A stretch of 52,902 bases of DNA from an uncultured Gammaproteobacteria bacterium (GCA_964613815.1 CAZTKG010000003.1:1-52902); one strand, 5' to 3'. Numbered from the stretch's first letter, positions 16,874 through 51,730 are shown. Program-made: numbers and translations. Notes: a model not told the origin generated them from the sequence alone.

Positions 16874-16963
16874 AGGACTATCTTGAATCTGATGTGGAAA
16901 GCGCCCGGTTGGGCGCTTTTTTGGTAAAAAAATGACCGACCCGCAGATGCGAATCGGAGAAGG

Positions 16964-17037
16964 TGCGTACAAGGGGATTCGAACCCCTGACCCCCAGGGC
17001 CACAACCTGGTGCTCTAACCAACTGAGCTATGCACGC
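16964..17037 (-). tRNA. trnH: tRNA-His (GTG), no encoded G-1, A73 discriminator
   Basis: GCGTGCATAGCTCAGTTGGTTAGAGCACCAGGTTGTGGCCCTGGGGGTCAGGGGTTCGAATCCCCTTGTACGCA folds as a cloverleaf with GTG anticodon; preceded by C, followed by CCT. Confidence 0.93.
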
Positions 17038-24212: not shown

Positions 24213-24314
24213 AGATCTTCTCTTGTGAAAGGTGCGCCTAGATCTTACCTGAAATTGATCGTAAAACAAGAAATATGTCAACAGCAAAAAACCCCCTCGT
24301 AAGAGGGAGTCTTT

Positions 24315-24391
24315 TGGAGCCGATGAGCGGATTCGAACCGCTGACCTGCTGTTTACAAAACAGCTGCTCTAACCAGCTGAGCTACATCGGC
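24315..24391 (-). tRNA. trnT: tRNA-Thr (TGT)
   Basis: GCCGATGTAGCTCAGCTGGTTAGAGCAGCTGTTTTGTAAACAGCAGGTCAGCGGTTCGAATCCGCTCATCGGCTCCA. Confidence 0.96.
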
Positions 24392-24400
24392 AGGCTTGTT

Positions 24401-24462
24401 AAAATGCCTTGAGATCGTTCCGTGCCTCCGGTCCTCGTCCCGAAACGATCTCAAGGCATTTT
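24401..24462. repeat. hairpin element, short copy (19-bp inverted arms)
   Basis: AAAATGCCTTGAGATCGTT ... AACGATCTCAAGGCATTTT; the loop contains CTCCGGTCCTCG, shared with 39334..39439. Confidence 0.85.
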
Positions 24463-24554
24463 TCCTGCGCCTGCCCCGAGGCGATTAAATACACTGAGAT
24501 CGTTCCGTTTCTGGATACATTGGCAAAAAAACAGCTAGCAAGACAGGCGCCGGA

Positions 24555-24653
24555 AAAATGCTCTGTCATCGTATTTCTTTCGAGCACCGCAGTAAGACGT
24601 ACTAAATGTACGTCGTCGAGGAGCGCAGAAAAAATACGATGACAGAGCATTTT
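24555..24653. repeat. hairpin element, long copy (22-bp inverted arms)
   Basis: AAAATGCTCTGTCATCGTATTT ... AAATACGATGACAGAGCATTTT, with an internal ACGTAC/GTACGT stem. Confidence 0.85.
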
Positions 24654-24663
24654 ACCAAGCCTG

Positions 24664-24749
24664 TGGTGGGCCGGGACGGATTCGAACCGCCGAAGGCGAA
24701 TGCCAGCAGGTTTACAGCCTGCCCCGTTTGACCGCTTCGGTACCGACCC
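24664..24749 (-). tRNA. trnY: tRNA-Tyr (GTA)
   Basis: GGGTCGGTACCGAAGCGGTCAAACGGGGCAGGCTGTAAACCTGCTGGCATTCGCCTTCGGCGGTTCGAATCCGTCCCGGCCCACCA; long variable arm. Confidence 0.96.
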
Positions 24750-24821
24750 CTTTTTGATTGAGCGTGGGGGCAGTGTACAAAATCTTCCAAAGATCGTCAA
24801 CAAAAATACCGCCCCCTTTTA

Positions 24822-25619
24822 TCAGGAGCGGGAATTGCGGATTTCGTCGATCTGCTGTGCGTATTCCTTGCGGATGAAGCGGTCGTAGACAGCGGTCCAA
24901 GCTTCGGGGAGGCGCATATCGCGGTAGCGGTCGCTCTCGTAAAAGCTATGGAGCAGGACGGGCTGTCGGACACTGACAAGGATGCGCATGAACATGTCTG
25001 GCGACATGGCGATACAGAGCTGTACTGCATCTTCCATGAGACGCGTCGCGATCCTTGGGCTACGATCGTGGATCGCGGCTGCTGTGTAGATCATGCGCGA
25101 CATCGCGCGAAGGATGGTGAGGGTGCGGAACTCTGCGATCCTGCAGACGGCAGCGATCTGATCTTCTTTACTGAAGAACTCCATGTCGACCGCTTCACCG
25201 TCGTCGCCTTCGATGACGAGAACACCGGCTCCCATGAAGCGCTGAGGGCCTCGATTGAGGGCAAACTCGTCGCTTGCCGGATCTACACCAGCAAAGCGGA
25301 GCCACCTTGTCGCGAGTGCGTAGTGCATCCCTGTACTCCTCGTTGGCGCTCTGGCGATAGCGCGGAGAATCTTCTCGATGTCCTCGCTCTCGATCACCTG
25401 CTCGGTGATTTCTGACACGCTCCGCTCTGCGAGTGCCTCGCGCCTTACGATGGCAATGCGGTCGATGTGCCAGATGATGGCGAGGAAGATTGCTTCGGCG
25501 CAGACGAGACCGAGCGTGATGATGGAGAGATCCATCTTCTTGTTGTGGATACTGTAGCCTGCAGAGCCGATGATGCCAAGGAAGAGGAGGATACAGATGA
25601 TGACGATGATTTTGCGCAT
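24822..25619 (-). CDS. two-TM hypothetical protein, paralog array member 1
   Basis: Two N-terminal TM helices joined by NKKMDLSII; C-terminal LCIAMSPDMF...LPEAW. Confidence 0.75.
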   Translation of the reverse strand: MRKIIVIICILLFLGIIGSAGYSIHNKKMDLSIITLGLVCAEAIFLAIIWHIDRIAIVRREALAERSVSEITEQVIESEDIEKILRAIARAPTRSTGMHYALATRWLRFAGVDPASDEFALNRGPQRFMGAGVLVIEGDDGEAVDMEFFSKEDQIAAVCRIAEFRTLTILRAMSRMIYTAAAIHDRSPRIATRLMEDAVQLCIAMSPDMFMRILVSVRQPVLLHSFYESDRYRDMRLPEAWTAVYDRFIRKEYAQQIDEIRNSRS

Positions 25620-25723
25620 TTCTGCTCCTAATGAAAGAAAAGAACTGGTTTATTTAACAGTATTGTGGAATTTTGTCAATTGAATAAAAAATCCTACGCC
25701 TTCTTGGGCGTAGGTGCTGCAGG

Positions 25724-26425
25724 CTACGGGGCCTGCTGCTTGCTGCGGTAGCTCTGGGCGACCTTTGTGATCATGCTCGACCAAGGTTCGCCAATCTTCG
25801 TGACCGTGTTGATGCGCTTGACCTCGAGGAGATCCAGCGCTGCCTGTAGCGGGGCACTTGCCTCGATGAAGACCTCGAGCTGGCCGGGAGCAATGAGGCG
25901 ACCGGTCATGAGGAGGTCCATCGCGATGTCCATGACCTTACCCTCAGACGCAGGCGTGGCTTGCGCTGCCTGGGTCCAGGTTGCGACCTCGGCTTCGATC
26001 TCGCTCTTGAGTTCCGTCATCCGCTTGAAGACGAGCTGCGTGTGACCGAGGGAGAGGTCTGCCATGCGGTCCAGGACCGAGACCATGAAGTCGACGCTGC
26101 GAGGCCACTCGATCCGCGGCGGGCGGTCGAACTGACCGCTCATGAGGGAGGCGATCTGAGCGTAGCTGCCGTCCTTGCCGGGCGATGCGGTCGCGACGGC
26201 CATGATGAGCTCTTCGGCCTTCTTGACGACAGTCATCGCGCGGCTCTCGAGTGCGTTCGCCCAGATGATCTCGATGATTCCTGAGACCGACGTGAGGGAG
26301 AACAGGAGGAGCGTCAGCTTGGCGACACTGCCCTTGTTGTCGATGTCGTAGCTGAGCGTGAGCGCGGTGAGAGAGGCGCAGACGACGAGAATTGCCCTGT
26401 TTGCCAGGCGAAGTTTGTTTGACAT
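25724..26425 (-). CDS. two-TM hypothetical protein, probable paralog array member 2 (most divergent)
   Basis: Two N-terminal TM helices with an NKG loop; C-terminal LIAPGQL...IGEPW; start placed at ATG 26425. Confidence 0.7.
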   Translation of the reverse strand: MSNKLRLANRAILVVCASLTALTLSYDIDNKGSVAKLTLLLFSLTSVSGIIEIIWANALESRAMTVVKKAEELIMAVATASPGKDGSYAQIASLMSGQFDRPPRIEWPRSVDFMVSVLDRMADLSLGHTQLVFKRMTELKSEIEAEVATWTQAAQATPASEGKVMDIAMDLLMTGRLIAPGQLEVFIEASAPLQAALDLLEVKRINTVTKIGEPWSSMITKVAQSYRSKQQAP

Positions 26426-26457
26426 GCAAGACTCCTGTGGAAGGTGCGTTGGGCCTG

Positions 26458-26486
26458 AAGTTAGCATTTTTTGTGGTTTTTGTCAA
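26458..26486 (-). promoter_or_regulatory. sigma70-type promoter
   Basis: TTGACA-N17(ending TGC)-TAACTT upstream of ATG 26425. Confidence 0.6.
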
Positions 26487-26536
26487 GGTTTTTGCGCGCG
26501 CAGCAAAGAAAAAAACCCCCTTGACGGAGGTGTGGT

Positions 26537-27193
26537 CTAGCTCTGTAGTGCCCTGAGCCAGACATAATGTAGCTCCATATGCCTCTGACTCACGAGCCAT
26601 GCAACGACGCGCTGTGTAGGCTCATCTGCCGATCGGACGATCTGAGCGAAGCTTGCCGGAGACACCATTCGGGACACGTGCTTGATTCGAATGGCTGCAG
26701 ACGCGATTTTTACGGAGTCTTCTGACGACAAATCCGCCGTCTCGTGACCCGCAAGGCCTTCGATCGTGCTGCACTCGTAACGAATTGCGGACGCCACCTG
26801 TCGCATGGTGTTCTGCAGGATTGTACGAAGAACACGGGATGAAGAGTCCGCGTTCTGAAATCCTTGCTGGGCCAGCGAGACGTGGAGGTGCTCTACATCC
26901 ATGGCTCCGATCGAGAGCCTCCCCTCCATGTAGGCGGTGAGAAGCGGGAAGACCAGCATGGCATCTGGATCGTTGATCCTGGGCGCAGACCTATCTGCCC
27001 CGATCTTCTTCTTGTTTCTATAGCGCGTGACCGCCTTGCTGACCACGACGACGCCGAGAGCGCCGATGACCACGATCGCCATGTCGTGCTTCTTGCTGAC
27101 GAGACTGATGGTGAGCGAGACGATCGTAGTGGCGTAGGCGAGCCATTCGACCCAACGCTGGGCGCGGATGAAGAATGCTTTGATGCGGCTCAT
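26537..27193 (-). CDS. two-TM hypothetical protein, paralog array member 3
   Basis: Two TM helices joined by SKKHDMAIV; C-terminal VSRMVSPASF...LHYVW. Confidence 0.75.
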   Translation of the reverse strand: MSRIKAFFIRAQRWVEWLAYATTIVSLTISLVSKKHDMAIVVIGALGVVVVSKAVTRYRNKKKIGADRSAPRINDPDAMLVFPLLTAYMEGRLSIGAMDVEHLHVSLAQQGFQNADSSSRVLRTILQNTMRQVASAIRYECSTIEGLAGHETADLSSEDSVKIASAAIRIKHVSRMVSPASFAQIVRSADEPTQRVVAWLVSQRHMELHYVWLRALQS

Positions 27194-27237
27194 CTGTATC
27201 TCCGTTGAAGGTGCGTTTCTCTTTTAGAAGAGGTCTG

Positions 27238-27266
27238 ACGTTAGCATTTTTCTTCATTACTGTCAA
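27238..27266 (-). promoter_or_regulatory. sigma70-type promoter
   Basis: TTGACA-N17(ending TGC)-TAACGT. Confidence 0.6.
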
Positions 27267-27303
27267 GGTCTTTGCCTATAAAAAAGAACCAGCTCTTGCT
27301 GGC

Positions 27304-28008
27304 TCAGGACGATGTGTTTGGCCTCGGTGTTCTGCCCTCTGCATAGGCCATGACGACCTCTCGCCAGGGCTCGGGGAGCTGAAATTCCGCGCCCCTCAGA
27401 AAGGTCTTGATGTCTTCTGATCCGCGCTGGCGCAGAAGGCTGTAGAGGACATCTGGTGCCATAGAGGTGCAGAGCTGCTCGAACACGGGCAGTCCACTGC
27501 TTGTCACCGCGCGTGCTGCGTGGTCTGGGCTCAGTGTTGCGTCCCTTGCGGCGCTCATGACTTCTAGGAGCGCTCCGAACGCCCTCCTGTTCATTGCGAG
27601 ATGCACTATCACCGCGGCATGGACGAATGTCACCGCAGCCTCTCCCCTTGGGGATTCTCCGGTACGTGCTACTCGAATGAACAGCTCTCTTGCCGTCTCC
27701 AAGGTCATGAAGTCCCGATTGATGAGGAATAGACCGATCATGCCCTCGCTATAACCGATTGATTTGTGAGAGACTTGGTTCAGCTCATCGAGCTCTTGCT
27801 GGAGCTGTCGTGATCTTGCCTCTGCCTGCTCTACGTCAGGTATGACGTAGCGGCGGAAGAGGAGTTCAGAGATGAAGAGAGCGGCAGCGATGGCGCCGAT
27901 GATGATGGAAAGGTCGTGCCTCTTGCTCATCACGCTGATGGCGACGATGAGGGGGATGACGCCGTATGCGGCCAGGCGTCCGTAAAAGATCTTCTTGCTC
28001 GTGAGCAT
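27304..28008 (-). CDS. two-TM hypothetical protein, paralog array member 4
   Basis: Two TM helices joined by SKRHDLSII; C-terminal LCTSMAPDVL...LPEPW. Confidence 0.75.
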   Translation of the reverse strand: MLTSKKIFYGRLAAYGVIPLIVAISVMSKRHDLSIIIGAIAAALFISELLFRRYVIPDVEQAEARSRQLQQELDELNQVSHKSIGYSEGMIGLFLINRDFMTLETARELFIRVARTGESPRGEAAVTFVHAAVIVHLAMNRRAFGALLEVMSAARDATLSPDHAARAVTSSGLPVFEQLCTSMAPDVLYSLLRQRGSEDIKTFLRGAEFQLPEPWREVVMAYAEGRTPRPNTSS

Positions 28009-28048
28009 ATGTTCTCCTGGTTTGATCTTGATGAATCACGAGAGAGAG

Positions 28049-28077
28049 AATTTAGCATCCTTTTCGCTTATTGTCAA
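28049..28077 (-). promoter_or_regulatory. sigma70-type promoter
   Basis: TTGACA-N17(ending TGC)-TAAATT. Confidence 0.6.
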
Positions 28078-28151
28078 TGATTTTTGTGTTCAGACGAGCT
28101 TGACATGGTGCCTGTGTTATGCTATTCTCGTGGTCCTCTTTGGAGCTCCTC

Positions 28152-28382
28152 ATGCCCTCTTCATCTATCTCTTCTCTGTCCCGTGTCGTCCCCGGCGTCG
28201 GCCCTGGTGTTTCCGATTCTGCCGTGCGTCAGGACCTCGCTCGTCGTGGATTCCCGACGCCTCAGCCTGTGACTCCAGCGCCCGCTTCGGCCACCGATCA
28301 GGCGACGGTCGACGACCGCGATCTGCCCAGGCCTGGCCCGCCGCTCGACGTCTATGGCCGCGATGGCCGATTCGGTCGATAG
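28152..28382 (+). CDS. small Pro/Ser-rich hypothetical protein (76 aa)
   Basis: Upstream TTGACA-N17-TATGCT, GGAG RBS, and a downstream hairpin + T-run (AACGCTCCGAA...TTCGGGCGTTTTTTT). Confidence 0.45.
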   Translation: MPSSSISSLSRVVPGVGPGVSDSAVRQDLARRGFPTPQPVTPAPASATDQATVDDRDLPRPGPPLDVYGRDGRFGR

Positions 28383-28467
28383 CGCCCCCTCTCAACGCTC
28401 CGAATGTTCGGGCGTTTTTTTTGATGTGCTGGGAGCACATCAAAAAAACGCCCTCCTTGCGGGAGGA

Positions 28468-28836
28468 CTAGGTGGTCACTGGAGCGACGGTGATGCTGGG
28501 CCGCTCGTTGTCGCGGACCATGCGTATCTCGTGGACGATGTGGAACAGGGTCATGAGCGTCGCAGCTCCTGTAGCGAAGCCGTTTGCGATCGCGGGGTCG
28601 ATTCCTTCCAGCCTTGTGACGTATAGAGAGAGGATGAATCCTACGCCAAGCCAGATGCGTAAGAACTGCATGTTCATGGGCAGATCTCTGCCCTCACTGC
28701 GGCGTTCTTGGATGAAGATGGCCATGAAAGCAAGGCCTGCGATCGCCTTCATGACCAGACTGTGCCAGATCAGCATCGATGAGATGAGCATGACGAGGTA
28801 GGTGAGGAAGCGAAAGAGCCGGTGTGGTCCGAACAT
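28468..28836 (-). CDS. small membrane protein
   Basis: 122 aa with about 4 hydrophobic segments; GGAGAA RBS. Confidence 0.65.
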   Translation of the reverse strand: MFGPHRLFRFLTYLVMLISSMLIWHSLVMKAIAGLAFMAIFIQERRSEGRDLPMNMQFLRIWLGVGFILSLYVTRLEGIDPAIANGFATGAATLMTLFHIVHEIRMVRDNERPSITVAPVTT

Positions 28837-28965
28837 GTGTTCTCCGGGAATGTACGTTAAGCCTGGCGGATTTTTTGGGTTTTGTCAAGAGTGGAAATAA
28901 ATAACCCCTCCGGATTCCAGAGCCCTTGCGGGATGGAATCGGAGGTGGCGAGGGAGTAGCGCGCG

Positions 28966-29817
28966 CTACTCGGGGGCGAGGGCAGCGACGCGGGGCGTGA
29001 TCGGCAGGAACTCGGGGACGGTGAAGTTCGGGTTCCGGTTGCCGATGTTGAGGCCCTCGACGACGATGCCGCTCGTCCTGGTCCGGTCCGGACCGATCGT
29101 CGGGATGAAGGTTCCGAACTGGCCCTTGGCGATGGCGTAGCGGAGGCCGGCCATGGCCATGCCGGGAAGCTCGCCCATGGACAGGGCCTTGAGGAGCTGC
29201 GGGAACTGCCAGAGCAGGGCCAGGAGCTCGATGCCCATGGAGCTCGTGCTCCTCGCGTCGGCGATGGAGCGTCGAACGGCGTGGCTGCTGAGATCGCAGG
29301 CGAACCACTCCAGGCCGGTGGCGACAGCTCGACTCCGACGGAACGGTCGGAGCGCGTCGGGGAGCTCCATCCAGACCGTGCCCGGGATCTCGAGCTCGGC
29401 GCCGAGGCGGCGGAGGATCTCCATGTTGGCGACGAACTCTCCCTGGATTTCGTCGGCGAGGTTGATGCGGACGCCGAGGAAGCTCATCGGCCCCTTCGGC
29501 CAGGACGGCGCTGCGGCGATGATGCGATCGATCTCCGCTTCGGGGATCTCGAGGTCGTACGCGTAGGCGGCGGCCTCGACCTGAGCGACGATGTCCTCGG
29601 GGTCCTTCTGGAAGGGGTTCTCGAGGTCGAGACGCAGGGCGTGCGAGATGGCCTGGGTCATCAGCTCCTTGCTGTCGGGGTCGCGCATGCGACCGTCGAG
29701 GCGATCGATGTCGACGTTGTTCGCGATCACGGTCGCGAGTCCGAGGACGTTGCCTGTGTAGGCGCGGAAGCGTCGCTGATCTGCGACTTCCTGAGCGGCG
29801 GTGGATTCTGCGGACAT
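28966..29817 (-). CDS. hypothetical protein
   Basis: Strong GC-rich codon bias; consensus promoter upstream; start placed at ATG 29817. Confidence 0.72.
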   Translation of the reverse strand: MSAESTAAQEVADQRRFRAYTGNVLGLATVIANNVDIDRLDGRMRDPDSKELMTQAISHALRLDLENPFQKDPEDIVAQVEAAAYAYDLEIPEAEIDRIIAAAPSWPKGPMSFLGVRINLADEIQGEFVANMEILRRLGAELEIPGTVWMELPDALRPFRRSRAVATGLEWFACDLSSHAVRRSIADARSTSSMGIELLALLWQFPQLLKALSMGELPGMAMAGLRYAIAKGQFGTFIPTIGPDRTRTSGIVVEGLNIGNRNPNFTVPEFLPITPRVAALAPE

Positions 29818-29872
29818 GATGGTCTCCTGATGGATGGAATGATCGGGGTGTGCACGGGTGTACAACTGGCGA

Positions 29873-29901
29873 ATATTAGCAGACTTCGTCGATTTTGTCA
29901 A
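29873..29901 (-). promoter_or_regulatory. sigma70-type promoter
   Basis: TTGACA-N17(ending TGC)-TAATAT. Confidence 0.6.
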
Positions 29902-29915
29902 TGCCCTGACCCTTC

Positions 29916-29992
29916 CCCATCCCGACCGAAGTGGGGGGATCTTCCGAAGGTATAGCGCAAACGCAAGATCCCTCCACTTCGGTCGGGATGGG
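29916..29992. repeat. REP-like inverted doublet
   Basis: 28-bp arms CCCATCCCGACCGAAGTGG(G/A)GGGATCTT in inverted orientation (29916-29943, 29965-29992), one mismatch. Confidence 0.85.
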
Positions 29993-30195
29993 ACCAGGAT
30001 GGGTTTCTGATGTTTGTATTAGATGTTATCCACAATTATTTGACAAAATTCTCTTCTCGATTCATGATCGAAGTATATGCAGATTCATTCATCACAGTAT
30101 TGGCCCAAGACGAACATGCCTCTCCGAGGTTCGCTGTTTTGTATTACCCGCCTCGGGAATACCGGCCGTCTGATGTAAGCAATCTGTCCAAAGAA

Positions 30196-30296
30196 GACCC
30201 TTACACGACTGCCGAAAATCACGGCAGTCGTTTTGTATAAGGGTCCGCATCTGAAGCGCTTAGGCGCGGGCCCTGATGCAGGGCTCGCGCTCTTTT
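30196..30296 (+). promoter_or_regulatory. structured 5' leader with terminator-like hairpin
   Basis: Stem GACCCTTA..GACTGCCG/CGGCAGTC..TAAGGGTC (30196-30245), then GCGCGGGCCCTG/CAGGGCTCGCGC + TCTTTT ending 15 nt before the racemase ATG. Confidence 0.5.
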
Positions 30297-30311
30297 ACAC
30301 GAGGAAAACGA

Positions 30312-30992
30312 ATGAAGACGATTGGAATTGTTGGCGGTCTTGGGCCGCTTGCGGGCATCTCGTTTGCTCAGCATTTGGTTGAAATCGGACAGGAAATGGG
30401 GTTTGCCGCAGACCAGCAGCATGCTCCGTGGATCCTGATGAATCGTCCTGGCGATGTGCCGGATAGAACAGATTCGCTCCTTCTGGGTGGCGTGGACTTT
30501 GTCCCGCCAATCCTGGACCAGCTCGCAGCGCTCAGGCGCTCGGGTGCGGACGTCGGGGTGATTGCGTGCAATACGGCGCATGTAGCTTGGGAGATGATTC
30601 GTCAGGCGGCGCCGATGCCGATGATGAGCATTGTTCACGAGACGGTTCGGTACGTTTGTGATCGATATCCGTCTGGAAACATTGGATTGTTGGCGACGGA
30701 TGGATCTTTGAAGCTTCGGCTGTATGCAGATCCACTTGAAGCGGCTGGCTACGAGGTTTTGACGCCTCGTTCGCGCTCTGTGCATGACGCTATTCTGGCC
30801 ATTAAGGCTGGGCGTCTCATGCATGCGCGGCGGATTCTGAGTCGTTGCGCTGGTGAACTGGAAGATCGTGACTGCTCGGCGATTGTGCTTGGCTGTACCG
30901 AGATTCCGCTTGCTCTGAAGTCTTTCCCTACCCCCCTCATCAACCCCACGCGTATTTTGGCTGAGGCTGCGATGCGCTTTTCCCTGGAGTAA
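30312..30992 (+). CDS. aspartate/glutamate racemase family protein
   Basis: MKTIGIVGGLGP, VPDRT, IACNTAH, GLLATDGS, VLGCTEIPL; both catalytic Cys present. Confidence 0.92.
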   Translation: MKTIGIVGGLGPLAGISFAQHLVEIGQEMGFAADQQHAPWILMNRPGDVPDRTDSLLLGGVDFVPPILDQLAALRRSGADVGVIACNTAHVAWEMIRQAAPMPMMSIVHETVRYVCDRYPSGNIGLLATDGSLKLRLYADPLEAAGYEVLTPRSRSVHDAILAIKAGRLMHARRILSRCAGELEDRDCSAIVLGCTEIPLALKSFPTPLINPTRILAEAAMRFSLE

Positions 30993-30995
30993 GAC

Positions 30996-32369: not shown

Positions 32370-32422
32370 TTCCTTGGAGTGACAGGTCGTGTTTTTATGC
32401 GGCCTGTCGGTTAATTTTTTCT

Positions 32423-33490
32423 ATGAATGCATTACGACAACATGGTGTGCAGTTTGGTGCCTTGCCGGCGACGGAGAATAATCATATCGCGGATATTGAC
32501 GGTGTTGGGATTGGGCATGTGACTGTGCATGATGGAGGGATTCACACCGGAATTACGCTTGTGAAACCTCATGATGGGGATGTGTTTCGCGAAAAGGCGT
32601 TTGCGGGGTTTTATGCGGGGAATGGGTTTGGGAAGTGCGTTGGATCTACACAGGTCGAGGAGCTTGGGAATATTGAAAGCATTCTTGGGCTGACGAATAC
32701 GCTTGCGGTTGGGACGGTTTTGCAGGAGCTTGTTCGTTATCATGTGCATCTTGATAAGGATATTGGCTCGATTAACGTCTTTGTTGGGGAGACGAATGAT
32801 GGATTTTTGAATGACATCTCTTCCCTGCCGATTACGGCGGATCATGTGAAAAAGGCTGTTTATGATGTTCGTGAGAGGAATTTTTCGCAGGGGGCGATTG
32901 GCGCTGGAGCTGGGACTCGGGCGTTTGGGTTTAAGGGCGGAATCGGGTCTGCTAGCCGTGTGATAGAGCCTGTTTTTACGAAGACGCATGAGCGGTTTAC
33001 GCTGGGGGTTTTGATGCAGTCGAATTATGGTGGGTTTTTGCGGTTGCACGGGAAGGAGATTTGGCGACGGCTTGGGGGGAATCGGATGCAGACGGAGATT
33101 GATGCGTTGAAGGCGGGAGGGTCTTGTATGATTTTGGTAGCGACGGATGCACCGCTTTTACCTCGGCAGTTGAAACGGCTAGCGAGGAGAGCTTTCTCTA
33201 CGCTCACTCGGACAGGATCATTCATCTCTCACGGAAGCGGTGATTATGCACTTGCGTGGAGCACGCATCCCAGCTCTCGCGTGCGCACGGATGATTATTC
33301 TGCTCGGTGGAATCAGGGGCCGTACCTTAGTGATGCAAGCATTGATCCGTTTTTTGCGGCGGTCTGTGATGCGACGGAGGAGGCACTTTGGAATAGCATC
33401 ACGACTTCCGAGACGGTGCATGGGTATAAAGGAGAGATCAAAAGATTAACTTGTGAAGAAATTCTTGAAGCGATGAACTATGATTACTGA
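32423..33490 (+). CDS. dmpA: P1/S58 family aminopeptidase (DmpA-like D-aminopeptidase)
   Basis: NHIADIDGVGIGH, NGFGK, LTNTLAVG, ETNDGFLND, GAGAGTRAFGFKGGIGSASR, G|SC autocleavage site, VATDAPL, HGSGD. Confidence 0.88.
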   Translation: MNALRQHGVQFGALPATENNHIADIDGVGIGHVTVHDGGIHTGITLVKPHDGDVFREKAFAGFYAGNGFGKCVGSTQVEELGNIESILGLTNTLAVGTVLQELVRYHVHLDKDIGSINVFVGETNDGFLNDISSLPITADHVKKAVYDVRERNFSQGAIGAGAGTRAFGFKGGIGSASRVIEPVFTKTHERFTLGVLMQSNYGGFLRLHGKEIWRRLGGNRMQTEIDALKAGGSCMILVATDAPLLPRQLKRLARRAFSTLTRTGSFISHGSGDYALAWSTHPSSRVRTDDYSARWNQGPYLSDASIDPFFAAVCDATEEALWNSITTSETVHGYKGEIKRLTCEEILEAMNYDY

Positions 33491-34652
33491 CATACAACAA
33501 GCTCTTCGTGATAGCGGCATTGATACCTGGCTGCTTGTGAACTTTCGGCATCGGAATAATTTGATGAATGAGTTGTTTGGGCTGGATACGAGGTCTACGA
33601 TGTCTCGGCGGTGCGCGTATGTGATCCCTGCTGACGGGGAGCCTGTGAAGATTTTGCATACCATTGAGCAGGATCAGCTCCCTGATCTTGATGGCGCTGT
33701 TGAGATCTATTGTGGCTGGCGGGAGTATGAGGCTGCACTCATGAAGGCTGGTGGGGCTGGGCGCGTGATTGCGATGGAATATTCGCCTCATAATGCGATT
33801 CCTACGATCGCGACCGTGGATGCCGGGACGGTTGACTTGATGCGATCGACGGGAGCTCGGGTTGTGTCTTCTGCGGATTTAGCGCAGCTGTTTAATGCGG
33901 TTTGGAGTTACGAGCAGTATGAATGTCATTTGCGGGCAGCTCGCGTACTACAGGCCTGTAAGGATGCGGCGTTTGGAGAGATTCGTCGGGTGGTTGATGA
34001 GGCTGGTGAGGTTCGTGAGTATGCTATTCAGCAGTTTATGATGCGGTTTATGAAGGCGCGCGGAATGGTGACGGATCATGCGCCGATCGTTGCGGCGAAC
34101 GGGAATAGTGCGCGGCCGCATTATGCGCCTTCTGCTCATGATAGCGCCGTGATTAGGGATGGGGATTTTGTGCTTTTGGATCTTTGGTGCAAGGAGAAAT
34201 CGGTAGGATCTGTTTATGCAGATATTACGTGGACGGGATCTTTAGGCGCTGCTTCTGATCGGCATCGTGAGATTTTTCGTATTGTTGCTGAGGCGAGGGA
34301 TGTGGCGCTTGCGTTTGTGCGAAGATCCTTTAGTGCTGGTCGTGATGTCAGCGGTGCTCAGATCGATGATGTTTGCCGTGGAGCCATTGAACGTGCTGGG
34401 TATGGCAAATATTTTATTCATCGGACTGGGCACTCCATTGGGGAGGAGTGTCATGGGAATGGAGCGAATATTGATAATTTGGAGACGAAAGATGTGCGGA
34501 AAATTTTGCCAATGACGTGCTTTTCGATTGAGCCTGGAGTGTATTTGCCTGGGGAATTTGGCGTGCGGAGTGAGATTGATGTGTTCGTGCATGCGGATGG
34601 GCGCGTGGAGGAGACTGGGAGCGGGGTTCAGCGGGAGATTTTGGAGATATAA
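33480..34652 (+). CDS. M24 family Xaa-Pro aminopeptidase-like protein
   Basis: N-terminal creatinase-like domain; PHY, LLDLW...YADITWT, HRTGHSIG, SIEPGVY, GVRSEID. Confidence 0.9.
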   Translation: MITDIQQALRDSGIDTWLLVNFRHRNNLMNELFGLDTRSTMSRRCAYVIPADGEPVKILHTIEQDQLPDLDGAVEIYCGWREYEAALMKAGGAGRVIAMEYSPHNAIPTIATVDAGTVDLMRSTGARVVSSADLAQLFNAVWSYEQYECHLRAARVLQACKDAAFGEIRRVVDEAGEVREYAIQQFMMRFMKARGMVTDHAPIVAANGNSARPHYAPSAHDSAVIRDGDFVLLDLWCKEKSVGSVYADITWTGSLGAASDRHREIFRIVAEARDVALAFVRRSFSAGRDVSGAQIDDVCRGAIERAGYGKYFIHRTGHSIGEECHGNGANIDNLETKDVRKILPMTCFSIEPGVYLPGEFGVRSEIDVFVHADGRVEETGSGVQREILEI

Positions 34653-34678
34653 AAAACCGCCCGGAGGAGCCGGGGCGG
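34652..34678. terminator. terminator hairpin, copy 1 of an identical 27-nt pair
   Basis: AAAAACCGCCCGGAGGAGCCGGGGCGG; identical sequence at 35705..35731. Confidence 0.7.
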
Positions 34679-34694
34679 TGATGAGGCGAAGCTC

Positions 34695-35588
34695 CTAGTA
34701 TGTGGCCTTCTTGGCGGCCTCGCAGTCTGCCATGAGTGCAGCGGTGTCGGCCTGTAGCACAGCATCGCTCTTGCCGGAGAGCCGCCACCATTCGGTGACG
34801 CGCTCCAGGTGCTGCGATTGGCAGAGCCAGTAGCCTGGAGGAGCGTCTACCCATCCGTTCTCGGCGTCGGACCACACCCGGGTGGTGCAGTCCGATGCGT
34901 TGTAGTAGAGCTCCTTCGCGCGGTCTGCCACCCTCCCTGCAGCCGCCTGAGCACGAGAGATCTCTCCGGCAGCCATCAGCAAGTCGTAGCCCTTGCGATG
35001 CGTGTCGTAGGTTGGCTCCGTATTGCAGCCTTCGCAGCTCCCCGGGATAGCATTGGCCATACTATCGGCGTAATGGAGCTCCCAGGTCTTTACGTCCGGC
35101 GTCAGCCCGAGCGCTTTTGCGAGGTCGCGCATCTGCAGCAGGAAGAGCGGCTGGTCGTCTTCGTGCGTATGGTATGCAGAGATCGGTGTGAAGCAGTCTG
35201 CCATCGTGTCTCGATCCCTGAATACGAGAGCTGCCTCGTCGGGACCGTTCGGGCCGTCAGGGTCTGTCCCGAGCAGCTTGATCGCCCAGTTGTAGTAGTC
35301 GTTCGCGAACTTGCGAAGACCTTTCGGATCGACCTTCAGCCATGCGAGCGGCACACTGACCTTGATGTCGAAGGCGTGATCGCCCTTGGTGAGTACCTGA
35401 TAGTACTCCGCGAAGTACTCGCTCGTGATCTTGCCACATCGATGGAGATGCGCAGCTGCCTCCGCTGACAACTTGGTCAAGTCGCTATTCGCGACCTGGA
35501 GTTCGTCCTCGTAGCGCCGCACGAAACAGTTATCAGTCGGTTCCGCAGCCTGCACGGATGTGACTGCCAGAAGAACGGAAAGGATCAT
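34695..35588 (-). CDS. secreted Cys-containing hypothetical protein, paralog A
   Basis: Signal peptide; shares DYY.WAI, CEGC, H..GY..LM and LCQ...LE..T.WW..(S/A)G with 35756..36643. Confidence 0.78.
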   Translation of the reverse strand: MILSVLLAVTSVQAAEPTDNCFVRRYEDELQVANSDLTKLSAEAAAHLHRCGKITSEYFAEYYQVLTKGDHAFDIKVSVPLAWLKVDPKGLRKFANDYYNWAIKLLGTDPDGPNGPDEAALVFRDRDTMADCFTPISAYHTHEDDQPLFLLQMRDLAKALGLTPDVKTWELHYADSMANAIPGSCEGCNTEPTYDTHRKGYDLLMAAGEISRAQAAAGRVADRAKELYYNASDCTTRVWSDAENGWVDAPPGYWLCQSQHLERVTEWWRLSGKSDAVLQADTAALMADCEAAKKATY

Positions 35589-35704
35589 GGTACCTCCGGT
35601 ACGTTGTTTGCGCCTAGAGGCTAGCATGCGAACTTGTCTTTGTCAATATCGTTCTTGTGATTTCTCCATCCTGAGGAGGGAAATAGAGACGCTTTTGTCA
35701 ATTT

Positions 35705-35731
35705 AAAAACCGCCCGGAGGAGCCGGGGCGG
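35705..35731. terminator. terminator hairpin, copy 2
   Basis: Identical to 34652..34678. Confidence 0.7.
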
Positions 35732-35755
35732 CTTGAGTGAGTCTGCAGGAAGGAC

Positions 35756-36643
35756 TCAAGGGATTGCGCTGGGACCGTCGCAGCTTGTGCGGAGGATTCC
35801 GGTCTTGAGAGCGATGGCACCGGCGCTGATGCCGGCGCGTTGCCACCAGTCGGTTGCGCCTTCGAGATAGCTCTCTTGGCACAGGAAGTGATCCCAAGGC
35901 AAGATGACCTCTTGCTCCGTCATGTTGTCCCAGTATCGGTCCGACATGCAGCCCTGTGAGTTGGGGTACTGCTGAACGTAGCGCTCGGCGACCTTGGCTG
36001 CTCCGCGCTGCGCCATTTCGACCTGGCCGAGCTCCATCAGTTCGGTGTAGCCAGTGAGATGGAGGTCGTCTTCGATGCGATAGCCACAGCCCTCGCAGTA
36101 GCCGATGGATCCGTCCATGGCGATCTTGGCCGCATGGGTGCGCCAGGTCTCGATGTCCTCGGTCATGCCGAGTTCAGCAGCGAGCGCGGCCATGCGCATA
36201 GAGATGCCGCCGCGGATGGAATCGTCGTACGGATCCCGATTGTGTGGCATGAAGCATGGATCGTAGGCGCCCGTGCTGTAGTCGGCGAAGTTGCCGAAGT
36301 CGAGCATCGCGCGCGGAGGCGAGACGTCGAACTCTGGTCCATCTGGGTGACCGACACGAACGCGCATACGCTCGATGGCCCAGTCGTAGTAGTCGACAGC
36401 GTCGCTGCGCCACTCGTCCGAATCGTGCCTCACGAGCGCGATGAAGAGCTCAGGGTTGAGATCGATGAGGCTCTCGGTCTGGTGCTTCGCGACAGCGTCC
36501 CTGATCGTCTGCGGGCTTGGGCCCAGGAGCGCGGTGATGCCAGCGATACTGGCGTTGCGGGAGACTTCGTCGTCCCAGTTGACCTGCTGACATTCGCCTT
36601 GCGCGGCGATTGCGGCTGCGGTGATGAAGGAAAGTACGAGCAT
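35756..36643 (-). CDS. secreted Cys-containing hypothetical protein, paralog B
   Basis: Signal peptide (MLVLSFITAAAIAAQG); motifs shared with paralog A. Confidence 0.78.
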   Translation of the reverse strand: MLVLSFITAAAIAAQGECQQVNWDDEVSRNASIAGITALLGPSPQTIRDAVAKHQTESLIDLNPELFIALVRHDSDEWRSDAVDYYDWAIERMRVRVGHPDGPEFDVSPPRAMLDFGNFADYSTGAYDPCFMPHNRDPYDDSIRGGISMRMAALAAELGMTEDIETWRTHAAKIAMDGSIGYCEGCGYRIEDDLHLTGYTELMELGQVEMAQRGAAKVAERYVQQYPNSQGCMSDRYWDNMTEQEVILPWDHFLCQESYLEGATDWWQRAGISAGAIALKTGILRTSCDGPSAIP

Positions 36644-36846
36644 GGCTTCTCCGGTGGCAGCTTGCCTGTTGGATTTTGCGTATCAAAACTACCACAAAAT
36701 TGGCATTTTGTCAATGATTTAAACAAAAAACCGCCCGATGAGTCCTGACTCTCTCACTCCCCCAAAGCACATGAATTGTCACTCGTTTTGGAGAAGTTTC
36801 AATCAAAAAAACCGCCAAGCGAAATGCGAGGCAGTTTTTTTTGTTA

Positions 36847-37758
36847 TCACTTAATCATCAGCATTGCCTGACTTCTAAACTCTTCGTGCCCTGCCCTCAT
36901 CTTTTTCTCCAGCTCCTCATCTCCCTCTGCCCAAACTCCTACTCTATGCATGGGCTTTAGCGCCAAGTAAAGGTCCCAAAAAGGGAGGTTCGTGTAATTA
37001 AGATGTGGCATTTCTTTTTTGTATGCCTCGGTAAACATGTCCATCGCCTCTCTGCTAATGTACATAATCATTTCCATTCGTACGTTTGCGAGATCGTGTA
37101 ATGGGTCGCCTATTGCGGCGTCTTCCCAATCTATGACCGCGATGAGTTCACCATCTTTCCACATGGTGTTGTTTGGCCAGTAATCGCCATGCAGGAATGC
37201 GTTGGCGTTTTTTTGATTGATTGGCCAGAGCTTTGCGATTGCAGCTCGGACCCTTAACTCCTCTAGAGACTCGTCGGGATTTTCTGATACGGTACTGATC
37301 TTTTCTTCGCAATGTAGGATTTGTAATGGAAGGAAATCCACATTTAGTTCATTGAGGTTCAGTCTATGGATATCTGCTAGAACCTTGGCAAACCGTGGAA
37401 TTGCGTGATCCAGACTCATATTTCCAAAACCTGCGCTACCTTCTATGAAATCCATCACCATGCATGGTTCTGCGGTGAATTCTGCCTTTGGGTCTACGAA
37501 TACTGGATTTGGGACTGGAATGTGATGATCTGCGAGAGCTGCAAGGAGTTGATGCTCCTCGTTGGCGACGTTTGGGGAAAAGGATCTTTGGCGCTCGCCG
37601 TATTCTCTCACGACGAGCCTGAAGAGGTCTCCGCCGTGATTGATGGAGAGCGCCGTAGTTGTGGCTGCGATTCCGCCGGTGAGCTCTTCGGAAGATACGA
37701 GTTTATAGGCGGGATTTATTGCTCTTAAGAGTGATTGGAACTGGTCGCTTGTAGACAT
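36847..37758 (-). CDS. aminoglycoside phosphotransferase (APH)/choline kinase family protein
   Basis: Brenner motif HGDYWPNN and IDWED; VPNPV, MDFIEG. Confidence 0.88.
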   Translation of the reverse strand: MSTSDQFQSLLRAINPAYKLVSSEELTGGIAATTTALSINHGGDLFRLVVREYGERQRSFSPNVANEEHQLLAALADHHIPVPNPVFVDPKAEFTAEPCMVMDFIEGSAGFGNMSLDHAIPRFAKVLADIHRLNLNELNVDFLPLQILHCEEKISTVSENPDESLEELRVRAAIAKLWPINQKNANAFLHGDYWPNNTMWKDGELIAVIDWEDAAIGDPLHDLANVRMEMIMYISREAMDMFTEAYKKEMPHLNYTNLPFWDLYLALKPMHRVGVWAEGDEELEKKMRAGHEEFRSQAMLMIK

Positions 37759-37878
37759 GGGAGCATATTAGCACGACTTTTTGATCGCGCTAGGCTCAAT
37801 AGCTTGACGGAAGGCACTTTTCTTGTTTAAATCAGCAGTCTTGCATATGCTTTTTATGCAGACTGACATGGAGTCACA

Positions 37879-39153
37879 ATGATCTTTGCACTACTTCTTC
37901 CCTCCCTCCTTTTCACCCCTGCCTATGCGCTCGACTGCCAGGATCGGCAGCAGCGCGTGATCGGGCACCTGTACCACCTGCAGGAGACGGTCCGTGGTCA
38001 CAATACACGCAAAGGGCTCTGCCCGCGGCTCGGCGACATCCTCCGCATGTCTTCGGAAGACATTCGCGGTCGTGAGATCGATGGTATCCACGTTCAGGTC
38101 GTGCCCGTGCAAGATCCGAACGGCCGTTCGTGGGACACGCTGTATCAGATCGCCTGGGCCGAAGAGCGCGGGCCGGCCTGTGAATCGGTCGTGATCGATG
38201 GCGTTGCCGATGGCCTGCCGGTTTGGCGGTGCCTGACGAACGATCAGATGATGCGCGGCTGGGGCCATGAGCTCGGTCCGGTGTTCGACGAGATCTACGC
38301 CGACTACGTCGTGTACGATGGCTACTTGGTCTACGACGGCTTCATGGGGACGCTCACGGACTACGACCAGAACACATTCACGGTCCTGGATGGCGAGCTC
38401 ATCGGTCCATTCGACTTCGCTTCCCAGCCCCGTATCGTGAACGAGCAGCTTCTTCTGATGCCGAAGAGTGCCGAAGGGCACCTGATGTCCTACGGTGACG
38501 TGGTTCAGGGGCCGTTCGATCGCATGCCTCGTCTGACTGGGTTCAATGAAGACCTCGGTGCGTTCCTGTACATCGGCGAGAAGTCTGGCGACGATGAGCG
38601 CGTGTATGTGGACAACGAGCCGCATGTTGACTGCAGCCGCGTGCCGTACTACGAGGTCAAGGATGGCGTTCTTCGGTACCCGTGCCAGGTCAACAGCATC
38701 GTCTATGAGGACGGAGAGGCTCGGACTCGGTACCAGTTCCGGCTGATCGAAGGCGATACGGTCGGCCCCCTCACCGACTCGCGGAACCCCGGCTGGGACC
38801 AGCCTGGATGGGTTCAGCACTACACCGTGAACGGACACGTGCTCTATGCTGCCGAGATCGATGGCAAGGCGCATGTGATCTGGGGCAGCTGGATCAGCGA
38901 GCCGAGTGATCGCGTGGTTGGGAATCGGGTGATCGGCGATGAGGTGCTGTCGACAGCGCTTGTGGGCGACAAGGTGTTTCTCCGTCTCGGTGATGGTCAG
39001 GTGAGTAAGCCCGTGCGCGTTACCGATCGCATCTGGGCCTTCTCGATCCTGTTCGATATCGATGAGGAGAACGGCGTGGTGAACTACACCGGCCGACGTG
39101 GTCCGTGGGGCATCTTCCCGGTTCGTGGAGCGCTCGAGATCGCGAGCGAGTAG
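37879..39153 (+). CDS. secreted beta-repeat hypothetical protein
   Basis: Signal peptide ending AYA-LD; repeated V-x-D-G...(GP)FD beta-hairpin units. Confidence 0.75.
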   Translation: MIFALLLPSLLFTPAYALDCQDRQQRVIGHLYHLQETVRGHNTRKGLCPRLGDILRMSSEDIRGREIDGIHVQVVPVQDPNGRSWDTLYQIAWAEERGPACESVVIDGVADGLPVWRCLTNDQMMRGWGHELGPVFDEIYADYVVYDGYLVYDGFMGTLTDYDQNTFTVLDGELIGPFDFASQPRIVNEQLLLMPKSAEGHLMSYGDVVQGPFDRMPRLTGFNEDLGAFLYIGEKSGDDERVYVDNEPHVDCSRVPYYEVKDGVLRYPCQVNSIVYEDGEARTRYQFRLIEGDTVGPLTDSRNPGWDQPGWVQHYTVNGHVLYAAEIDGKAHVIWGSWISEPSDRVVGNRVIGDEVLSTALVGDKVFLRLGDGQVSKPVRVTDRIWAFSILFDIDEENGVVNYTGRRGPWGIFPVRGALEIASE

Positions 39154-39246
39154 CAGATGATCTGTTCTAGCGATAATCGCTAGGACTTTTTTGTTTTCAC
39201 CTTCACCTAATCCAAAAGCCCACCTTTCTTTCAAAAGATGGGCTTC

Positions 39247-39323
39247 TGGAGCCGTTGCGCGGATTCGAACCGCGGACCTCGTCCTTACCATGGACGCGCT
39301 CTAACCAACTGAGCTACAACGGC
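39247..39323 (-). tRNA. trnT: tRNA-Thr (GGT)
   Basis: GCCGTTGTAGCTCAGTTGGTTAGAGCGCGTCCATGGTAAGGACGAGGTCCGCGGTTCGAATCCGCGCAACGGCTCCA. Confidence 0.96.
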
Positions 39324-39333
39324 CTTTGGGCTT

Positions 39334-39439
39334 GCTAGAATGCCCTGAGATTGTGTTTTTTCTCCGGTCCTCGACACCGACCATTTTAGGTCGCCTTACT
39401 CTGGTCCTCGAAAGAAACCCAATCTCAGGGCATTCTAGC
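39334..39439. repeat. hairpin element, long copy (20-bp inverted arms)
   Basis: GCTAGAATGCCCTGAGATTG ... CAATCTCAGGGCATTCTAGC; the interior aligns with 24555..24653 in reverse orientation. Confidence 0.85.
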
Positions 39440-39583
39440 GTCGCCCAAAGTTGCTAAGTTGTCCGTGCTAGGTCTTAATCTTTTCTGAGCCGCTGTCCAC
39501 CCCCCCCCTTTTTTTTCTTACAGGACTGCGCTTTTCCGGATTTCAGTAGTCGAATATTAGCAAACTTACTCAATCTTGCAAGT

Positions 39584-41088: not shown

Positions 41089-41205
41089 TTCAGCCTCCGG
41101 GTGGGAAAGAACGCTTTTAGTTTACCGCTCGACCCTTCCCTGCTCCACCCTCCCTGTTGACAAAATCGGGCTGATTTACTAATATTCGTTCACAAACCAA
41201 CACTT

Positions 41206-48160: not shown

Positions 48161-48236
48161 AGATCTCTTCACAAGGTCGAGATGGGAAACGTAGAGGTCA
48201 TTCTTCATTTCCATCTCGACCGAAGTGGAGAGATCT
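48161..48236. repeat. REP-like inverted doublet, second copy (opposite arrangement)
   Basis: Right arm CCATCTCGACCGAAGTGGAGAGATCT matches the 29916 consensus at 24 of 26 positions; the left arm is a degenerate inverse. Confidence 0.75.
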
Positions 48237-48466
48237 TGTATTTTGCTTTTTTTCACCCTCCTGCTTTCCCTTATTTTCTTATATTTTTACTAAAATTAGC
48301 TATTTTTTTGTACTTTTAGCATCTTAATACTGTTCACCAAGTCTTGACAAAACCTGTTTTTTATGCTATATTGAACCCTTCGTCAAACTGACGAAACCCC
48401 TTCTTTCAACCGGATTCCTTAGCAATTTCTGCGACGGAGTCTTCCCTCTAAAACACTGGTCATTCC

Positions 48467-51687: not shown

Positions 51688-51730
51688 TACAAAAGTGGTC
51701 CGTACGGACCACTTTTGTATCAGGCAGGAT
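51677..51730. repeat. perfect 54-bp palindrome with no loop
   Basis: ATCCTGCCTGATACAAAAGTGGTCCGT|ACGGACCACTTTTGTATCAGGCAGGAT. Confidence 0.95.

Follow-up and report, generated by a model that had tools for sequence, protein, structure and literature searches.

The window analysed here is a stretch of 52,902 nucleotides (nt) deposited as an uncultured Gammaproteobacteria bacterium (GCA_964613815.1 CAZTKG010000003.1:1-52902). It carries five tRNA genes, every one on the minus strand, and three hairpin elements, hereafter copies A, B and C, which stand against the ends of three of these genes. An earlier note, made from the sequence alone, had described three hairpins close to tRNA genes and proposed that they belong to a repeat family with covarying stems. 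The hairpins have the sequence features then described, and A, B and C belong to a so far undescribed family of structured hairpin repeats of about 120 nt, which is multi-copy and present in several small marine genomes resembling those of the candidate phyla radiation (CPR)/Patescibacteria. The "sense" strand of the element is the strand reading the 12-mer CGAGGACCGGAG, and positions are those of the whole window. The tRNA genes and the features around them are the following:

55-128, minus strand, tRNA-Trp (tRNA calling)
16962-17037, minus strand, tRNA-His (tRNA calling)
24292-24307, minus strand, terminator-like hairpin with a T-run, closing the tRNA-Tyr/tRNA-Thr(UGU) transcription unit
24315-24391, minus strand, tRNA-Thr(UGU), its 5' end 1 nt from copy A
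24389-24476, minus strand, copy A, short form, sense with tRNA-Thr(UGU)
24486-24509, no strand assigned, solo arm remnant, 19 of 24 positions matching the arm of A at 24401-24424
24544-24662, sense strand plus, copy B, long form, antisense to the tRNA operon
24664-24749, minus strand, tRNA-Tyr(GUA), CCA encoded
24772-24800, minus strand, promoter-like site TTGACG-17-TACACT, which would drive tRNA-Tyr, B, A and tRNA-Thr(UGU)
39247-39323, minus strand, tRNA-Thr(GGU) (tRNA calling)
39324-39450, minus strand, copy C, long form, sense with tRNA-Thr(GGU)
39554-39581, minus strand, weak promoter-like site TTGCAA-16-TAATAT, read by eye and under the scan threshold

The folding energies of A, B and C lie 7-11 standard deviations under those of dinucleotide shuffles, on either strand. 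The hairpin of A (24401-24462) has 22-nt arms that are 95% complementary, that of B (24552-24656) 37-nt arms at 84% and that of C (39334-39439) 28-nt arms at 93%. The units extend beyond the limits of about 100 nt first assigned to them, as an outer helix, P1, lengthens each one; it reads GGCAGGC/GCCUGCC in A, where it overlaps nt 1-3 of tRNA-Thr(UGU), and CUUUGGGC/GCCCAAAG in C, where it stops 1 nt short of the 5' end of tRNA-Thr(GGU). Copy B points the opposite way to A, C and the tRNA genes, in agreement with the opposite orientation of the interiors noticed earlier: CGAGGACCGGAG has two near copies on the plus strand of B (24581-24592 and 24617-24628), a single exact occurrence on the minus strand of A (24426-24437), and one exact (39362-39373) and one near copy (39399-39410) on the minus strand of C. 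The switch of the inner stem from ACGTAC/GTACGT in B to CGACC/GGTCG in C is also as described. The orphan arm reported near 24495 corresponds to an exact 14-mer, TGAGATCGTTCCGT, found at 24410-24423 in the arm of A and again at 24495-24508, and the match of 19 of 24 positions to that arm identifies 24486-24509 as a solo arm remnant. The outer arms, presented earlier as different, do differ without being unrelated, since those of A and C have AATGCCYTGAGAT in common and, in the 20-bp arms of B and C read directly, six of the seven positions that differ in the 5' arm are compensated in the 3' arm.

A covariance model, made first from five copies and then from seven, was scanned over the window and related loci. 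It recovered B and C, and weakly A, with no other copies in the window, and it found more in the genome of the same organism and in others. A fourth exact-pattern genome scan yielded three true copies (E1-E3, 88-92% identical to each other) in the metagenome-assembled genome (MAG) CAYFMS01, to which the model added a fourth from the same MAG (E4), as well as a diverged copy in the Uhrbacteria MAG PFWU01 (locus L071), two tandem copies in the Patescibacteria MAG JBDRLV01 (locus L077) and two degenerate small versions. Three series of exact-pattern scans (two genome, one metagenome and one viral pattern) returned chance-level matches only, a weak negative, the window's own samples being seemingly absent there. 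Metagenome contigs from the samples bearing the window gave further copies at genome depth: D, 83% identical to C across exactly 39329-39445; F, with A-like arms plus 40 nt that are absent from A, at 24437/24441; and H, I and J, with arms of other sequence. A B-like copy at double depth turned out to be a tandem pair, K1 (truncated) and K2, located on the same contig (L173:1-252), about 10 kb past the right end of the window and directly upstream of tRNA-Thr(CGU). The organism of the window has at least ten copies, all intergenic.

Window-type copies are closer to each other than to E1-E4 or to the L071 and L077 copies, a pattern of lineage-specific subfamilies. Signs of turnover are apparent in the sequences: A is an internal-deletion derivative of an F-like form, minus the 40 internal nt, and it is accompanied by the solo arm at 24486-24509 and the truncated K1. 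A single tRNA spacer, Tyr-Thr(UGU), holds three stacked pieces. At locus L165, a degenerate mini-element (2002-2055) was observed in the 5' leader of a KH-domain gene, behind a TTGACA/TATGAT promoter, and an odd tRNA-Thr(UGU) called by ARAGORN (2216-2291), with its anticodon at position 36, lies between rpsP and this gene.

Units of the family are 90-135 nt long and each copy forms one long irregular hairpin on the sense strand. From base to tip it comprises P1 (5-8 bp, differing between subfamilies), a small asymmetric junction (5' G-A/C-A/C versus 3' AA) always closed by G-C, the long arms, the conserved core and a short apical hairpin, mostly with GUAC/GUAC. The core 12-mer, YGAG-NNANN-SNAG, is present on both core strands and pairs with itself, in the order C-G, GA/GGA loop, GG-A-CC versus GG-A-CC with a central A.A, GGA/GA loop and G-C. 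The core is therefore a two-fold symmetric module in which GA/GGA purine loops flank a 2+2-bp helix with a central A.A, and this self-pairing is the reason why a direct repeat stands inside a hairpin. The middle helix is GGACC/GGACC in C and E1-E3, GCACC/GGAGC in B (a compensated pair), GCAUC/GAAGC in K1 and K2, GUAGC/GCAAC in E4, GCACU/GGAGC in D and GCAGC/GCUGC in the L071 copy; it covaries while the loops and the mismatch stay constant, the central A.A being found in 10 of the 11 aligned copies. The copies of CAYFMS01, L071 and L077 carry tandem GA/GA loops spaced by 7-bp and 5-6-bp helices, and the same arm region is perfectly paired in window-type copies (CUGAGAUUG/CAAUCUCAG versus UGA-GA-UUUG/CAAA-GA-UCG).

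Several other accounts of the element were discarded. Arms unrelated between copies are ruled out by the GAGAU.../...AUC motifs and the UUUCGUU/ACGAAA helix, which recur in window-type and E-type copies. Insertion of the core into pre-existing local hairpins, which would account for the variable P1, is ruled out by P1 helices common between loci: GUCGC/GCGAC is found in both E1 and E4 at unrelated loci and CAGGC/GCCUG in both A and B, the GGCTTG-side flank of F being identical in reading. A small open reading frame (ORF) starting from the conserved GAUGAGAUU is open in E1 and E2 and stops at 4-5 codons in E3 and L077, and a CsrA-type GGA sponge is ruled out by the GGA loops not being retained in L071 or L077. 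As a separate observation, the E-type core (L148:3753-3760, with equivalents in E2 and E3) reads GGTTCGAG, the tRNA T-arm/T-loop consensus, which may indicate an origin of the family from tRNA sequence or be a coincidence.

Covariation was counted mainly on 11 copies aligned to the covariance model, with 500 shuffles and slid-partner controls, and also on a 7-copy alignment and a 5-copy MAFFT alignment. Among the 11 copies, standard pairs occupy 93.8% of cells versus 71.9 ± 1.8 in shuffles, and two-sided changes affect 20 of the 25 core pairs versus 9.4 ± 1.7 in shuffles and at most 5 with slid partners; the observed covariation value was reached by none of the 500 shuffles. The stems covary far beyond both controls, as had been anticipated. 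The further step taken earlier, from compensatory change to selection on structure, is likely right for the core; in the long outer arms the near-perfect pairing could alternatively come from template-switch "perfection" of a quasipalindrome. In E1-E4 and L071 folding favours the sense over the antisense strand by 13-18 kcal/mol, with purine-purine mismatches and G.U wobble pairs in the sense strand; the two are about equal in the window organism and in L077. Covariation and the folding advantage of the sense strand together speak for a folded single strand as the selected form.

The placement of the copies follows a rule. Over all genomes, the sense 3' end (...CAAGC-P1') adjoins a gene end in 10 of the 11 placed copies, and in all seven of those placed in the window organism a tRNA gene ends within 0-5 nt of it. 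Copies upstream of a tRNA 5' end are sense: A at 1 nt from tRNA-Thr(UGU), C at 1 nt from tRNA-Thr(GGU), K2 at 2 nt from tRNA-Thr(CGU) and, in L148, a degenerate copy about 33 nt from tRNA-Gly. Copies after a tRNA CCA are antisense: B at 2 nt from tRNA-Tyr, where its end reads ...CAAGCCUG, D at 3 nt, F at 0-2 nt and the L071 copy at about 10 nt. With the degenerate L148 copy included, this makes four upstream and four downstream. In CAYFMS01, antisense copies instead follow TAG stop codons (E1 by 2 nt after a DUF1761 gene, E2 overlapping that of nrdA at 0 nt, E4 by 1 nt after nrdB), and E3, with no gene-end docking, is the exception. Both orientations relative to host transcription occur. All three tRNA-Thr isoacceptor genes have a sense copy upstream; none lies upstream of tRNA-Trp, -His, -Ser(CGA) or -Tyr.

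Over 73 kb of contiguous genome, five of five copies lie in tRNA flanks and four of the seven tRNAs carry one. Only about 0.9% of the non-coding insertion points of the window (about 0.009 per insertion) are within 6 nt of a tRNA end, so the adjacency to tRNAs is real in this organism. The tRNA bias supposed earlier does not hold for the whole family, because the four good copies of CAYFMS01 are off tRNAs, three of them lying against TAG stop codons.

The genes for tRNA-Tyr and tRNA-Thr(UGU), with B and A between them, form one predicted transcription unit bracketed by the promoter-like site at 24772-24800 and the terminator at 24292-24307. The weak site at 39554-39581 has a TGCTAATATTCG form in common with sites at 29870-29901 and 41157-41188 and, if it is real, copy C would lie within a leader of about 220 nt of tRNA-Thr(GGU). 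The recurrent form can be written TTGaCAA-N16/17-TGCTAATATTCG (29870-29901, 39550-39581 and 41157-41188), and the consensus scan misses the one upstream of C. For B, E2 and E4 the promoter scan gave no site on the sense strand, and the idea of independent sense-strand promoters for these three copies was rejected. The metatranscriptomes of the same studies gave no match over the element loci, and the CAYFMS01 locus was in no RNA run.

Other observations concern the same gene ends. The DUF1761, nrdA and nrdB genes all end in TAG (L148:3842-3844, L160:3068-3070 and L160:4344-4346), the one overlapped by E2 being within its helix P1. On the sense-5' side of E2 and E4 lies a 34-nt repeat, 97% identical (L160:3230-3263 and 4474-4507), with TTAGGG-like runs nearby, which may be part of a longer repeat unit in that genome. 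Copy F (metagenome runs X2/X4, seen in the flanks of the equivalents of window 24391-24473) has a tRNA 3' end, ...ACGCCGC-A-CCA, on one side and a tRNA 5' end, GCGGCGT..., on the other, and the acceptor strands of the two are exactly complementary; as read from the 30 nt visible of each, they may belong to two isoacceptor genes or, with less likelihood, to a single permuted tRNA gene. A different hairpin, TCCCACTTCRCCCTTYGGGYTACGTTGGGGA, occurs in CAYFMS01 (L148:5190-5235, 5324-5419 and 6225-6259) right after a tRNA-Leu CCA and a stray tRNA-Gly 3' fragment, and the tRNA-Gly 3' half in L148 is part of a 96-nt palindrome. In L070 and L071, other hairpins start at the tRNA-Tyr CCA.

The organism of the window is an uncultured marine bacterium, repeatedly assembled as contigs of 76-200 kb. 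Its prolyl-tRNA synthetase (ProRS) is 74% identical to those of MAGs placed among Uhrbacteria, Parcubacteria and Peribacteria, one of them a 1.0-Mb chromosome, and the organism can tentatively be regarded as CPR/Patescibacteria-like. The MAGs nearest by ProRS (L068-L070, 74%) are titled "uncultured Gammaproteobacteria" yet stand among CPR/Patescibacteria matches, and to judge from these matches their titles are probably mislabelled. Relatives sharing the ProRS-M16-TIM-TPR-tRNA synteny have tRNA Thr/Tyr/Thr spacers of 1-7 nt in which the element is absent (L069, L073). The diverged copy of L071 lies in the syntenic tRNA cluster at a different junction, which points to repeated arrival. The neighbouring M20 peptidase gave no usable synteny anchor, its nearest homologues being 45% identical and their loci without Thr or Tyr tRNA. 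Two assemblies of the same organism, L171 and L172, diverge completely just past tRNA-Trp, upstream of window position 1, with a YafQ/RelB pair and a tRNA-Ser in one and different genes in the other, a strain-level rearrangement at a tRNA.

Among known systems, REPs (short for repetitive extragenic palindromic elements) are 20-40-nt imperfect palindromes with a conserved 5' GTAG-type tetranucleotide, two of them in inverted arrangement form a REPIN, and the associated RAYT (TnpA-REP, a Y1 HUH transposase) is encoded by a single-copy gene that is usually REP-flanked (Bertels & Rainey 2011, PMC3116915; PMC8266576). The present elements resemble REPINs in being short (about 100 nt), extragenic, multi-copy, non-coding and hairpin-forming, in persisting within a lineage, in keeping their stems paired and in being recognised, presumably, as a folded single strand. 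They differ by a conserved core of about 60 nt with the 12-mers as direct repeats and no inverted doublet, by the lack of a visible GTAG-type head at the unit ends, by a copy number of about ten versus hundreds and by one fixed end that abuts gene ends; no RAYT gene was found in the window or related loci.

The family likewise matches nothing in Rfam. With Rfam 15 at gathering scores only the tRNAs of the window reach threshold, and E-value searches of 24280-24820, L148:3650-3900 and L077:1-2600 gave only sub-threshold miRNA-precursor-like and RtT matches. RtT (RF00391), the repeats of the E. coli tyrT operon, scored 14.8 bits for E1 versus a gathering score of 45, with nothing in the window; like the present element it is a repeated non-coding element within a tRNA-Tyr operon, and it is released from the tRNA transcript, but neither its sequence nor its structure matches. 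The element thus matches no Rfam or REP family, and the motif is not reported as an element in the literature searched.

Bacterial miniature inverted-repeat transposable elements (MITEs), such as the Neisseria Correia elements, ERIC, RUP, Nezha and Chunjie, have terminal inverted repeats matching a parent insertion sequence (IS) and a target-site duplication; they are co-transcribed with their neighbours, and their long hairpins are cleavable by RNase III. The present elements share with MITEs a size of 100-150 nt, inverted-repeat arms, an intergenic location in either orientation, co-transcription and long hairpins, and they differ in that their arms vary between copies yet stay complementary, in the absence of a duplication and in having no known parent IS. 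REPINs and co-transcribed MITEs are the closest in behaviour, though, of their defining features, the REP head, the inverted doublet and target duplication fail here, and neither RAYT nor IS-matched ends were found in the window or related loci.

Integron attC sites have core sites RYYYAAC...GTTRRRY at the hairpin base, a variable tip, an arrangement in cassette arrays and intI nearby; like CTX phage attP(+) they are single-strand-specific hairpins in which a recombinase dimer recognises the structure, the unpaired bases and the pseudo-two-fold symmetry, not the sequence. The folded, strand-specific hairpin of 60-150 nt is a likeness to both, and attC can be rejected for the present family, in which the base is variable and the inner core conserved, the ends read ...GC-GAA / AA-GC... 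without GTTRRRY, the copies are dispersed singly or in pairs and no integrase was found near them. TIGR-Tas systems, which occur in CPR bacteria, consist of stem-loop arrays, in which box C (CCA) and box D (UG) enclose variable spacers, with an adjacent gene for a Nop-domain protein (Tas) (Faure et al. 2025, PMC12045711). As in TIGR and archaeal box C/D small RNAs, which are read by a symmetric protein dimer, a variable palindromic stem surrounds a direct-repeated motif here, and plant tRNA-snoRNA genes offer a parallel for the use of tRNA processing; both TIGR-Tas and box C/D are rejected, as their guides are variable, unpaired and bordered by tiny box C/D motifs, the present 12-mers are conserved and mutually paired, and no Nop/Tas protein was found among the neighbouring ORFs. 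Archaeal bulge-helix-bulge motifs have two 3-nt bulges on opposite strands exactly 4 bp apart, unlike the two 2x3 internal loops (GA versus GGA) flanking a five-position helix with a central A.A. In a kink-turn the bulged strand carries, after a 3-nt bulge, tandem sheared G.A pairs; this is also rejected, the GA/GA loops here being symmetric 2x2 loops between Watson-Crick helices and a K-turn register breaking the fully paired GAACC/GGUUC. We regard the family as one of bacterial structured palindromic repeats in which the symmetric core is unusual and the rule of docking at gene ends unexplained.

The linked Y1/RAYT transposase or GIY-YIG nuclease that the earlier note had suggested looking for was encountered neither in the window nor in some 60 kb of related loci. 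Pfam scans of the ORFs of the window, L071, L077, L148, L160 and L165 contained no Y1_Tnp or other transposase, and the called genes of L171-L174 included no transposase. No integrase was found near the copies and no IS in the window or related loci examined, and neighbouring ORFs showed neither a Nop domain nor a PDB relative.

Our tentative preference, to which we give slightly less than an even chance, goes to a non-autonomous, structure-dependent mobile repeat, REPIN- or MITE-like, that would dock at the ends of genes and be carried along in pre-tRNA transcripts. It is favoured because of the dispersed copies, the lineage subfamilies, the derivatives and remnants, the stacking, the absence at orthologous sites and the occurrence of both orientations. 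The polar placement of one end and the indications of a folded single strand as the selected form also count in its favour. The repeat would multiply within a lineage, and a protein made elsewhere, probably dimeric given the symmetry of the core, would recognise it as a folded single strand. Its fixed end would settle 0-5 nt from a gene end, in the window organism always that of a tRNA gene. Copies upstream of a tRNA would stand in sense within the 5' leader, from which RNase P would remove them, those downstream would stand in antisense in the 3' trailer, and the element would be carried passively in both. What the data show is the family itself, with its structure, covariation and copy number, together with a deletion derivative, a remnant and a rule of placement; mobility, the protein partner and processing are what we infer beyond that.

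Several results weigh against a mobile repeat. Neither a transposase nor a recombinase nor a reverse transcriptase was found among the window ORFs and about 60 kb of related loci, and no target-site duplication is visible in the flanks of A, B, C and E1-E4 read directly. No polymorphism of filled and empty sites was seen: six same-species contigs are identical in the Tyr-Thr region, and other runs share tRNA sequence only. The larger alignments used in the covariation counts were fitted to the model, which flatters structure. At least four genomes have kept the loops of the core, its A.A mismatch and the distances between the GA/GA loops, which looks more like a functional RNA or ribonucleoprotein (RNP) site than a decaying parasite, and the restriction of upstream sense copies to the three tRNA-Thr genes (Trp, His, Ser and Tyr having none) hints at a Thr-linked role.

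These last points lead to the main rival, a functional structured RNA family, a somewhat unlikely alternative in our judgement. The product would be a sense hairpin RNA of about 120 nt whose symmetric core is bound by a dimeric protein, with the neighbouring tRNA folds as processing signals: RNase P would cut at the downstream tRNA (A, C, K2) or at the mirror-image fold opposite (B, D, F, L071). Strong covariation, invariant purine loops with the nearly constant A.A, and the tandem loops kept in CAYFMS01, L071 and L077 would all be expected of such an RNA, as would a sense strand that folds far better in two lineages and holds all the wobble pairs, a 3' end always proximal to the tRNA (0-5 nt) and a sense copy upstream of three out of three tRNA-Thr genes. 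Yet for seven placed copies the only evident transcription gives the antisense strand, no promoter-like site was found for sense transcription of B, E2 or E4, copies occupy non-orthologous positions in relatives, deletion derivatives and remnants are tolerated, and in the window organism and L077 neither strand has a clear folding advantage.

It is distinctly unlikely that the copies are host cis-acting end hairpins, acting in either orientation as RNase III processing sites, 3'-end protectors or insulators of tRNA and mRNA transcripts, in the manner of rRNA processing stems, phage T7 RNase III sites or REP stabilisers. The 20-22-bp near-perfect stems of the window copies, formed on either strand, would suit such a role, as would starts 0-3 nt after a CCA or stop codon and the unrelated hairpins right after a CCA in L070, L071 and L148. 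In E1-E4, however, the host-transcribed strand has A.C and pyrimidine mismatches where the other strand has G.U and G.A, which implies that folding of the host transcript is not what is conserved. Relatives moreover process the same tRNA clusters with hairpin-free spacers of 1-7 nt, and RNase III needs no conserved sequence-specific core.

We hold as very improbable an RNA-level partner of tRNA genes, in which a symmetric RNP-forming hairpin would be cut by RNase P from pre-tRNA leaders and perhaps be copied back beside tRNA genes by reverse transcription primed from a tRNA CCA, which would make it neither passive junk nor an ordinary DNA transposon. The least probable proposal is tRNA-primed retro-mobility proper, by which sense RNA released by RNase P would be reverse-transcribed from a tRNA 3'-CCA and recombined into the gene of that tRNA, leaving tRNA-CCA followed by an antisense copy: B and F do read tRNA...CCA-CAGGCTTG..., the complement of the A/K-type leader 3' end (...CAAGCCUG), D and L071 have the same polarity and the upstream and downstream copies are respectively all sense and all antisense, but this basis consists entirely of junction sequences, no reverse transcriptase was seen in the window or related loci, and tRNA priming does not explain the same polarity of E1, E2 and E4 after the stop codons of protein genes.

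CPR/Patescibacteria genomes are of about 1 Mb and tightly packed. At least ten copies of a 120-nt structured element in such a genome represent a notable investment or a notable parasite load. The self-pairing, two-fold symmetric purine-loop core found across genomes is distinctive, as are the covarying helices and a fixed end docked at tRNA ends or stop codons with an orientation set by the side of the gene. A mobile element of this kind would choose targets at gene termini without duplicating them, whereas an RNA would represent a bacterial RNP, new in type, that borrows tRNA processing; an RNA-level partner would give CPR bacteria a tRNA-linked structured RNA or retro-element of a new bacterial class. 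The covariance model and the docking rule can be applied to thousands of CPR MAGs, and they advise caution in annotation, as long "spacers" in CPR tRNA operons are structured repeats.

The window also contains features unconnected with this family. A second, unrelated hairpin-repeat family is present at 29916-29992 and 48165-48240, with the arm CCATCYCGACCGAAGTGGRGRGATCTT in common, one of the copies having 31-nt arms that are 94% complementary. A near-perfect palindrome of 60 nt (51674-51733; 30-nt arms, 97%, no spacer) lies between a PaaX-like gene and a TrmB-like regulator gene. Finally, four ORFs (218-265 aa) lie in tandem at 24822-28008 on the minus strand; they have N-terminal membrane anchors, none matches Pfam or PDB, and three are located behind a similar 44-nt promoter-like repeat (26452, 27232 and 28043).

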